64,000 nt of DNA from a virus: positions 47,977 through 111,976 of the IMG/VR virus record IMGVR_UViG_3300027759_000056. One strand, written 5' to 3'. A model generated the notes under the pieces. It saw nothing but the letters and a program-made list of their open reading frames with translations, searched no databases and was not told the origin of the DNA. A program made the translations under genes and the position numbers. Position 1 is the first letter of the stretch; each line of letters begins with the position of its first letter. Shown here in pieces: positions 11,444 to 16,286 of the stretch.

Positions 11444-11500
11444 TTGACACTTTTCAAAAGTTTGATATATTTAATAAGAAATTAAATAATAATACATTCA

Positions 11501-11590: not shown

Positions 11591-11622
11591 AAAAACCCAT
11601 CTCAAAAGGATGGGTTTTTTTT
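11591..11622 (+). terminator. intrinsic terminator/attenuator upstream of tRNA array 2
   Basis: AAAAACCCATC-TCAAAAG-GATGGGTTTTT plus T tract; CCCATCTC can alternatively pair with GAGATGGG (11558-11565). Confidence 0.85.
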
Positions 11623-11689: not shown

Positions 11690-11711
11690 AAGTTCTTTGA
11701 CGTATTGGTAA
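11690..11711 (+). promoter_or_regulatory. boxA-like antitermination element
   Basis: AAGTTCTTTGACGTATTGGTAA. Confidence 0.6.
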
Positions 11712-11720
11712 GAAAAAATT

Positions 11721-11792
11721 GCTCGGTTCATCTATCGGTTAGGATGCTAGGTTTTCATCCTAGAAAGAGGGGTTCGACTCCCCTACCGAGTA
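11721..11792 (+). tRNA. tRNA-Glu(TTC)
   Basis: CTAGG-TTTTCAT-CCTAG. Confidence 0.92.
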
Positions 11793-11801
11793 CAAATAAA
11801 T

Positions 11802-11876
11802 AGCGGGGTGGAGCAGAGGTAGCTTGCGAGGCTCATAACCTTGAGGTCACAGGTTCGAATCCTGTCCCCGCTACCA
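11802..11876 (+). tRNA. tRNA-Met(CAT), initiator-like body with A1-U72 pair
   Basis: AGCGGGGTGGAGCAG...; loop CTCATAA; CCA. Confidence 0.88.
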
Positions 11877-11884
11877 AAATAAAT

Positions 11885-11958
11885 CGCGAGTTGGTGTAAT
11901 GGTAACATAATGGGCTCATAACCCATAGTTCCGAGTTCGAGTCTCGGGTTCGCAACCA
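11885..11958 (+). tRNA. tRNA-fMet(CAT)
   Basis: C1:A72 mismatch; GGG/CCC anticodon stem; CCA. Confidence 0.88.
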
Positions 11959-11961
11959 ATG

Positions 11962-12172
11962 GATGTAACTTGGGTCGTGCCACATTGGCCACTTTTACAT
12001 CAAGAGTCAGAAGGATTAGAGGTGGCCGTGACTACTCTGACTCGAATACAAAGTACCACGATGCTTACCGTAAGAACAGCACAGTGGTAGATAGAGTTAA
12101 CGTGAATAACCCAAGGCATAAGCGTTAACAACCCCCAATAAGACTATTTGGCCAATAGAAACTGTTGGGGTT
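11962..12172 (+). ncRNA. unassigned multi-hairpin, pseudoknotted RNA
   Basis: five hairpins and two loop-loop complementarities (see findings). Confidence 0.6.
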
Positions 12173-12179
12173 ATTAAAA

Positions 12180-12251
12180 GCGAGTGTAGTATAAAGGCTA
12201 TTACTCCAGCCTTCCAAGCTGGATATGCGAGTTCGATTCTCGCCACTCGCT
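12180..12251 (+). tRNA. tRNA-Gly(TCC)
   Basis: CCAGC-CTTCCAA-GCTGG; U73. Confidence 0.92.
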
Positions 12252-12256
12252 CAAAA

Positions 12257-12453
12257 AGAACCTTTTCTTACGGAAGTCCGATTAGCGCGGATGAAAGGAA
12301 CCTTGACTTCACGGGAGTAGCTACCCAATTGAAGCTTGAATGACTCAAGGTACTCTGTAATGGACCCTGCTCTATGGTGCACACATAACAGGTGATGGGG
12401 AACAAACCATCGGTAAAATCTAAACCCACGGTGAGCGTGGAAGGAAAGTTTCT
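12257..12453 (+). ncRNA. unassigned ~200-nt structured RNA
   Basis: closing helix AGAACCTTTTCTT/AAGGAAAGTTTCT; several internal hairpins; no ORF. Confidence 0.55.
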
Positions 12454-12460
12454 TTTTTTT

Positions 12461-12535
12461 GCGGGAGTAGCTCAGGGGTAGAGCTTCAGTTTACCAAACT
12501 GAAAGTCGAAGGTTCGAATCCTTTTTCCCGCTCCA
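12461..12535 (+). tRNA. tRNA-Gly(ACC)
   Basis: TCAGT-TTACCAA-ACTGA; GCGGGAG acceptor; U73 plus CCA. Confidence 0.88.
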
Positions 12536-12603
12536 AATGTAAATCTTAAAAAGGGCCCTTCCGTGTTTATCACGGCTTGTTGGGCCCGGGTTTACTAACT
12601 TAC

Positions 12604-12675
12604 GGTCCTGTAGTTAATCGGCTATAATATTGCCCTGTCACGGCAAAGTGCCGGGTTCGATTCCCGGTGGGACCG
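12604..12675 (+). tRNA. tRNA-Asp(GTC)
   Basis: TTGCC-CTGTCAC-GGCAA; G73. Confidence 0.92.
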
Positions 12676-12686
12676 CAAAAATAAAA

Positions 12687-12756
12687 GGGCCTGATGTCAA
12701 CGGCAGACCGTTTGATTTGCAATCAGAACGTATGGGTTCGATTCCCACAGTGTCCA
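12687..12756 (+). tRNA. tRNA-Ala(TGC)
   Basis: TTGA-TTTGCAA-TCAG; G3.U70; irregular acceptor/D arm. Confidence 0.8.
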
Positions 12757-12765
12757 CAAACAAAT

Positions 12766-12841
12766 AGCGTAGTAGAGGAGTCAGGTTTATCTCATCTGCT
12801 TTGGGAGCAGAGGCACGCTGGTTCGAATCCAGTCTACGCTA
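12766..12841 (+). tRNA. tRNA-Pro(TGG)
   Basis: TCTGC-TTTGGGA-GCAGA. Confidence 0.9.
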
Positions 12842-15396: not shown

Positions 15397-16062
15397 ATGG
15401 AAATGACTTATCCCGTAGCCGGAGAAACCTTTAATAGTAACTCATCATTTGGTATGAGAGGAACTGGTACACACAAAGGAATTGACCTTAAAGCCGATTC
15501 TGGTGACCGTGTAGTTGCCGCTTTACCAGGTACTGTAATAAAATCAGACGATAATACTGACCCACAAGGTTATGGTGGACAAATATTAATTAAACACAAT
15601 ATTGACGGTGATATTTTTTATACTCGTTATGCTCACTTAAGAAAAAGATATGTTCAAGTAAATGAGAACGTTTCTCAGGGTGAAAAAATTGGAGAATCAG
15701 GTGGTGGTGAAGGTGATGCAAATAGAGGTAGAGCAACTGGTCCACATTTACATTTTGAATTATTAGATTACGGTCAAAAAGCAATTGACCCTGAACCATA
15801 CTTAAAAGGTGCTTTAGCGGTTGGAGCTGCGGGTCTTGTTGCTGGAGGAACAAATAGTGGAAGTACAAGTTCATCAGGCTCAACTCTTAATACCGACGCT
15901 GCTGGAAAAGCGGTTGATAAAATTATGGCTGGGTTTATGAAAGGATATTCACCTATAGGTTATTTATCATCACTAAAAGGATTGTCTGAACCAAAAAAAG
16001 AATCGGAAATTTCAAAACCAATACTTGAAGATATAGAACGAATTAAACAACTCTTAAAATAA
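15397..16062 (+). CDS. M23 family metallopeptidase (peptidoglycan hydrolase)
   Basis: HKGIDL, TRYAHL, TGPHLHFE. Confidence 0.9.
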   Translation: MEMTYPVAGETFNSNSSFGMRGTGTHKGIDLKADSGDRVVAALPGTVIKSDDNTDPQGYGGQILIKHNIDGDIFYTRYAHLRKRYVQVNENVSQGEKIGESGGGEGDANRGRATGPHLHFELLDYGQKAIDPEPYLKGALAVGAAGLVAGGTNSGSTSSSGSTLNTDAAGKAVDKIMAGFMKGYSPIGYLSSLKGLSEPKKESEISKPILEDIERIKQLLK

Positions 16063-16089
16063 AAAAACCCCTCGATTGAGGGGTTTTTT
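16063..16089. terminator. bidirectional intrinsic terminator
   Basis: A-tract, CCCTC/GAGGG hairpin, T-tract between convergent genes. Confidence 0.8.
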
Positions 16090-16109
16090 GTTAATGATTA
16101 CGGTGTTGA

Positions 16110-16286
16110 TTATTTCTTCTCAACTACAACTGAATCAGCTTTAACTGAATCTTTAGCAACTACCATAGTAGAATCACACTTAAGTGAATCTGCACAAGTT
16201 GAATCGCATTTAGTTGTTTCGGTTTCTTGGCTTGAACAAGCAACCAACGCAGTCATCATTACTAAACCTAAAATGTACTTTTTCAT
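16110..16286 (-). CDS. small lipoprotein (MKKYILGLVMMTALVAC...)
   Basis: signal peptide with LVAC lipobox; DS-rich tail; 58 aa, below the ORF-track cutoff. Confidence 0.7.
   Translation of the reverse strand: MKKYILGLVMMTALVACSSQETETTKCDSTCADSLKCDSTMVVAKDSVKADSVVVEKK

Follow-up and report, generated by a model that had tools for sequence, protein, structure and literature searches.

In the 64,000-nt stretch of viral DNA analysed here (the window), a 210-base stretch on the tRNA strand of the second tRNA array, between tRNA-Met and tRNA-Gly(TCC), consists of two separate small structured RNA genes, each of which recurs independently in other phage tRNA arrays. These genes, designated modules A and B, are best explained as members of the tRNA operon that would be co-transcribed with it and released as stable RNAs by tRNA-processing enzymes, a reading to which we assign a probability of about 0.7.

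The source record, IMGVR_UViG_3300027759_000056, is 112 kb in length and is rated 37% complete in IMG/VR. Close relatives of the window phage are near-complete at 269-295 kb. The relatives' size, together with the terminase, portal and major head protein encoded in the window and its 26 tRNAs and one tmRNA (ARAGORN; Rfam), indicates that the source is an uncultured giant tailed phage. The sequencing runs that hold the 210-base stretch are freshwater and lake metagenomes. The two flanking tRNAs, the two modules and the hairpins and loop segments located in the sequence are as follows.

11885..11958, + strand: upstream tRNA-Met (CAT), ending in CCA (ARAGORN; Rfam tRNA model, 55.3 bits)
11959..12048, + strand: module A, a two-hairpin RNA of ~90 nt in a tRNA-sized slot (covariance model R1, 98.6 bits, E 7e-24)
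11962..12001, + strand: hairpin 1 (P1 of module A), GATGTAA 11962-68 / TTACATC 11995-12001, with a 26-nt loop; 8 of 8 model pairs change on both sides
12004..12043, + strand: hairpin 2 (P2 of module A), GAGTCAGA 12004-11 / TCTGACTC 12036-43, with a 24-nt loop; 8 of 8 pairs change on both sides
12050..12182, + strand: module B, a three-hairpin RNA of ~130 nt (covariance model R2, 134.6 bits, E 5.6e-29)
12054..12089, + strand: hairpin 3 (P1 of module B), outer stem TACCAC 12054-59 / GTGGTA 12084-89, inner stem 12062-65/12078-81; from covariation and separate folding
12069..12074, + strand: C-GUAA-G tetraloop at the apex of P1 of module B, the ACCGUAAGA apex being nearly invariant
12096..12129, + strand: hairpin 4 (P2 of module B), GTTAACG 12096-102 / CGTTAAC 12123-29, stem 12096-103/12122-129; 8 of 8 pairs change on both sides
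12130..12172, + strand: hairpin 5 (P3 of module B), AACCCCCAATA 12130-40 / TGTTGGGGTT 12163-72, outer stem 12133-40/12163-70, inner stem 12144-48/12154-58; from covariation and separate folding
11987..11992, + strand: GGCCAC, complementary to GTGGCC 12022-27 (loop complementarity 1)
11969..11975, + strand: CTTGGGT, complementary to ACCCAAG 12109-15 (loop complementarity 2)
12180..12252, + strand: downstream tRNA-Gly (TCC) (ARAGORN; Rfam tRNA model, 66 bits)

A preliminary description of this DNA had read the stretch as one RNA of about 210 nt, with five hairpins and two pseudoknots. The five hairpins are present where it placed them, and in the homologues collected all of their stems covary, with compensatory changes backing each. 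Its proposal of a structured non-coding RNA on the tRNA strand is likewise borne out, both by this covariation and by recurrent G-U pairs, one pair of module B P3 being U-G in as many as 38 of 52 rows; such pairs are compatible with the tRNA strand only, and the RNA strand is therefore that of the tRNAs. The 210-base stretch folds better than its shuffles on either strand (z about -3). In the minimum-energy fold of the whole stretch, long-range pairs replace three of the local hairpins; folded separately, modules A and B give exactly the hairpins backed by covariation (module B z = -3.55).

The single ~210-nt molecule did not survive a survey of relatives, some gathered by means of a neighbouring protein and others by means of the freshwater-1 core. 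A query with the whole stretch splits, positions 2-85 matching one set of loci and positions 84-220 another, which points to modularity. Patterns of 14-15 nt in viral contigs gave mostly chance hits among the matches listed, and longer gapped patterns, used instead, yielded about 100 loci of module A and 72 of module B. Placement was surveyed in 81 distinct contexts of the two modules. The order tRNA-Met, A, B, tRNA-Gly, with A and B 10 nt apart, occurs in the window's lineage only (18 loci), and among close relatives the arrangement is tRNA-A-tRNA in L237 and tRNA-Met-B-tRNA-Gly in L192 and L332. Whole-record covariance-model searches found module A without B in genomes rated 98, 92 and 100% complete, and module B without A in genomes rated 100 and 96% complete, and in the positive controls both models scored where expected. 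Near-complete genomes with one module alone, together with working controls, show that the modules are independent. Hairpins 1-2 and 3-5 thus belong to separate families.

Module A is the sole match of the R1 model in the window. Its homologues number 68, of which 67 are distinct, and they lie a few nucleotides from tRNAs on each side, the neighbours being tRNAs for Met, Thr, Asp, Ser, Glu, Gly and Ala; in the window, the 3' end of tRNA-Met is 3 nt ahead of the module. Each of the 16 pairs in P1 and P2 changes on both sides across the 67 distinct sequences, and these pairs rank top in an unbiased mutual-information list; in P2, 94% of cells are paired. The stems vary freely, and the two loops of ~25 nt are nearly invariant, with ~30 unpaired bases nearly unchanged among the 67 distinct sequences, an invariance partly imposed by the exact-match collecting patterns, which under-sample variation and of which different parts were freed in two later scans. 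The ends of the module are not paired with each other, and there is no closing stem. L534 has a second, diverged copy of module A (L534:4519-4610), flanked by tRNA-Asp and tRNA-Ala, in the array that also holds the A-B pair of that locus; the loop-loop helix of this copy is changed compensatorily, to ACCAC with GUGGU.

Module A appears, from the pattern searches, to be confined to viral and metagenome contigs, since in 185,579 species genomes the pattern matched nothing but GC-rich coding sequence by chance. These matches, in five bacterial MAG contigs, were set aside; they lie in long GC-rich open frames with no tRNAs, two of them are the same gene, and their model scores are low.

The preliminary description had joined hairpins 1 and 2 by pairing GGCCAC (11987-92) with GTGGCC (12022-27). 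A loop-loop helix between these hairpins is upheld, with a different 5' partner, namely the GCCAC that lies 8 nt upstream of the segment originally proposed.

11979..11983, + strand: GCCAC, 5' strand of the kissing helix, pairing with 12022-26
12022..12026, + strand: GUGGC, 3' strand of the kissing helix, pairing with 11979-83
11974..11976, + strand: GUC, candidate 3-bp extension of the kissing helix with GAC 12030-32, invariant in all homologues

The helix 11979-83/12022-26 is 100% paired in 67 distinct sequences, with compensatory double changes at four of its five pairs (GC>AU, CG>UA, AU>GC and CG>GC/UA). The alternative partner at 11987-92 keeps its pairing in only 80.6% of cells and is broken in the variant sequences. 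As the initial patterns fixed the loop motifs, a scan was run with GCCAC and GUGGC left free; it returned 15 new variants, in all of which the changes are compensatory. The following combinations were recorded.

5' GCCGC with 3' GCGGC
5' GCCAG with 3' CUGGC
5' GCUAC with 3' GUAGC
5' GCCAU with 3' AUGGC
5' GCCGU with 3' ACGGC
5' ACCAC with 3' GUGGU

Covariation thus supports the loop-loop kissing helix of module A. The helix may possibly be extended by pairing of GUC 11974-76 with GAC 12030-32. When these bases were left free in a later scan they were still invariant, the one new variant found not touching them, and on this 3-bp extension covariation is therefore uninformative.

Module B is similarly defined by covariation. 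In a plain MAFFT alignment RNAalifold recovered only parts of P1 and P3 owing to indels, and the sequences were realigned to the R2 covariance model. In the 52 distinct rows 95.4% of cells are paired, against 32-44% in slid controls, and 24 of the 31 pairs change on both sides. The P1 hairpin also occurs alone in other loci, with other partners. P2 carries a conserved GAA / AUAA internal loop and a variable tip: in the window the tip is a mini-hairpin, CC-CAA-GG (12110-16), which contains the ACCCAAG of the preliminary description, and in relatives it is absent, a mini-hairpin of a few nucleotides or a hairpin of ~50 nt. The P3 hairpin has two tiers and conserves GUAAG and AGAAACUG. The P3 interior and the P1 apex are nearly invariant, and the stems vary freely. 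As with module A, the ends of module B are not paired with each other and form no closing stem. A tRNA or other hairpins precede the module, and it either closes its array or has a tRNA 1-5 nt downstream.

Module B ranges from 124 to 178 nt in length, and its length differences are not multiples of three, which argues that it is non-coding. Two open reading frames of 43 and 52 aa that overlap the stretch were rejected as genes; where A stands alone the downstream sequence is unconserved, and the indels are not multiples of three. A second R2 match on the opposite strand (16056-16154) is weak and driven by a terminator-like hairpin, and was dropped.

Other lineages carry extra 5' hairpins on module B. 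One conserved hairpin, CCCC-CUGUGG...CUGCAGG, lies about 30 nt 5' of B in L322, L337, L362, L330, L012 and L329; it is found ahead of B in many lineages, shows apparent compensatory changes and is absent from the window. Still further upstream is a hairpin CYAUAG-UGAUACUGUUG-CUAUGG, also absent from the window. Long tRNA-like genes (115-126 nt) were observed directly 3' of B at L134:1953-2067 and L334:694-819; according to ARAGORN, the L134 gene is a tRNA-Phe whose 43-nt intron lies at position 37.

The second proposed pseudoknot, CUUGGGU with ACCCAAG, was not sustained: it links two independent modules, most relatives lack it, and its occurrence does not exceed chance. When the loops are shuffled, 13% of the shuffles show a complementarity of at least 7 nt between some two of the five, and the stretch holds an additional match of 8 nt, joining loops 1 and 5, which the preliminary description did not list; loop matches alone therefore prove nothing. 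A narrower proposal is that, at least in the window's lineage, A and B dock through CUUGGGU (11969-75) and ACCCAAG (12109-15) into one double-pseudoknotted particle of ~210 nt. The 7-nt complementarity is indeed perfect, it is used in the minimum-energy fold of the whole stretch, and both the A-B order and the two segments are constant in 18 of 18 loci of the lineage; moreover, most A copies elsewhere have CUAGGGU, and the CUUGGGU of the lineage perfects the match. However, CUUGGGU is also present in A copies without B (L237, L542, L476, L463 and L517), and ACCCAAGG in B copies without A (L192 and L332). The B segment forms the local mini-hairpin described above, which in relatives is replaced by other inserts or by nothing, and the 7-nt pairing competes both with that mini-hairpin and with the invariant GUC 11974-76. 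Neither segment varies within the lineage, leaving no covariation in support of docking, and a match of this length is within chance. A lineage-specific docking of A and B is thus possible but unlikely, and the single particle as a whole is given little credence.

No Rfam family accounts for either module; the preliminary description, too, had been unable to assign the stretch. With Rfam 15 (4227 models) nothing was found over 11959-12179 at gathering score or at E up to 10, and no family overlaps the A and B homologues either, as searched at gathering score in 18 loci and at E up to 1 in 10. Neither ARAGORN nor the Rfam tRNA model calls a tRNA or tRNA-like gene in 11959-12179. A blastn search of 11880-12470 against 50,697 phage records matched tRNAs only, and the literature consulted on freshwater-1, on RNAs in phage tRNA arrays and on T4-type stable RNAs held nothing on the A or B families.

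The architecture of module A, two helices with a tertiary loop-loop helix and a large invariant core, is a pattern typical of ribozymes and aptamers. It could accordingly be asked whether A, and perhaps B too, acts as a catalyst or binds a ligand, as would a new self-cleaving ribozyme or an orphan aptamer; in module B, the GNRA tetraloop and the conserved internal loop might act as tetraloop and receptor. However, Rfam searches relaxed to E up to 10 match no ribozyme or riboswitch model, a switch would lack both a downstream gene and an expression platform, and tRNA-processing enzymes would already explain release of the RNAs. This possibility is considered very improbable.

The best promoter-like site upstream of the array is the following.

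11444..11471, + strand: TTGACA, 16 nt, TATATT, with TG (consensus pattern match only, 11/12)

A consensus promoter scan of the + strand over 11700-12840 gave no comparable site. A terminator-like hairpin with a U-run was observed at 11591-11619, between the promoter-like site and the first tRNA of the array. Six metatranscriptomes contain the 210-base stretch. In metatranscriptomes from four studies, contigs are continuous over tRNA, A, B and tRNA, although these are assembled contigs, blind to RNA ends and strand, that may include DNA; stretches that some RNA-library contigs do not cover carry no meaning. The continuous contigs are consistent with a polycistronic transcript. One metatranscriptome contig, of run X18, joins 11793 to 11877 and omits one of the two tRNA-Met genes; this junction probably reflects a strain without that tRNA-Met copy.

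In the preferred reading, transcription of a polycistronic RNA carrying the tRNAs, A and B would likely start at the promoter-like site near 11444. RNase P cleavage at the 5' end of the downstream tRNA-Gly would set the 3' end of module B, and trimming of the 3' end of the upstream tRNA would free the adjoining module, such that A and B would come out as stable small RNAs. Conservation alone, in the many invariant unpaired bases, suggests a specific fold for each RNA, which may serve to bind a protein or some other partner during infection.

Alternatively, the hairpins could be cis-acting parts of the tRNA operon, serving as processing platforms, as spacers against misfolding or, for hairpin 5, as a leaky terminator or attenuator. 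Both modules do lie exactly between tRNAs. Further, at least five T residues follow the P3 stem of module B in 30 of 44 distinct homologues, often at the array end; the other 14 are the window's lineage, where tRNA-Gly follows and the U-run is interrupted (the tail in the window is UUAUUAAAA, with the tRNA 7 nt downstream, and a terminator scan does not call P3). However, the ~30 unpaired bases of A, the P1 apex of B and the P3 interior of B are nearly invariant, which is needless for a spacer or a terminator. In many lineages a tRNA begins 1-5 nt past the U-run, and most gaps between tRNAs in the same arrays are 2-10 nt long and have no such RNA element. A purely cis-acting role is therefore judged improbable, and release of A and B as stable RNAs is retained as the best explanation.

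Two further observations concern tRNAs of this array. The tRNA-Gly at 12461-12535 has an unusual anticodon, ACC, where GCC occurs at the equivalent place in L192 and L510. Between tRNA-Asp and tRNA-Pro, positions 12687-12756 give a weak Rfam tRNA match, at 29.5 bits barely reaching the threshold, with no corresponding ARAGORN call; L192 and other relatives have a tRNA-Ala at the equivalent place.

The spacer that follows the downstream tRNA-Gly holds an RNA of a known family.

12356..12418: freshwater-1 RNA (RF02979), in the next spacer, 180 nt downstream (Rfam, 73.8 bits)

Freshwater-1 is a small structured RNA of unknown function from freshwater metagenomes, and relatives carry it in arrays that also hold A and B; in some lineages it immediately precedes module B. 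It differs from both in fold and sequence, and its model does not match the 210-base stretch. In the window it is enclosed in a separate stem-closed unit with a tRNA-Gly gene on either side, whereas A and B are flanked directly by tRNAs and have no closing stem. The spacer 12253-12460 folds as one unit with a closing stem of ~17 bp (AAAAAGAA.CCUUUUCUU with GGAAGGAAAG.UUUCUUUUU), and the freshwater-1 motif is one of its several inner hairpins. Here the motif may be only part of an RNA of ~200 nt, as the predicted fold suggests.

The large RNAs GOLLD and ROOL are several hundred nucleotides long and have many more helices. Their genes are often found close to tRNAs and in phages (PMC5737381). 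Their likeness to A and B, which are separate RNAs of ~90 and ~130 nt, is one of location only, and Rfam gave no match to either in the window.

Phage tRNA clusters have long been known to harbour stable non-tRNA RNAs. In T4 the tRNA cluster ends with tRNA-Arg, rnaD (119 nt) and rnaC (139 nt), separated by 1 and 6 nt. These RNAs, species 2 (rnaD) and species 1 (rnaC), resemble A and B in being tandem non-tRNA small RNAs encoded directly after a tRNA, on the tRNA strand, in a phage cluster; they are the last in the cluster, as are many module B loci. There is, however, no homology between the two pairs: with filters off, R1 and R2 run over T4 68000-76000 found no match on rnaC or rnaD. Further, T4 rnaC ends, in our reading, in a tRNA-like T-arm, and neither A nor B has a T-arm. 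The T4 record lists no function for rnaC or rnaD, and to our knowledge their function is still unexplained.

Modules A and B would add two well-defined families to the class of stable non-tRNA RNAs in phage tRNA clusters, and with dozens of distinct variants each, clear covariation and, in module A, a proven tertiary contact there is enough to propose both as new RNA families. A more far-reaching and tentative reading, which we hold to be rather unlikely, is that A is a new compact kissing-loop fold of uncultured giant phages with a role in host takeover, acting for example as a decoy or inhibitor of a tRNA-acting host enzyme or defence protein, or as a ribozyme, and that B is a second such RNA. 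If this were true, tRNA operons would be a general launch pad for effector RNAs of giant phages. Modules A and B, freshwater-1 and further hairpins are shuffled among the inter-tRNA slots of different phages, which suggests that in giant phages the tRNA operons serve to produce and set free a whole repertoire of small RNAs. Identification of the binding partner of even one such RNA would open up the question of what this repertoire does.
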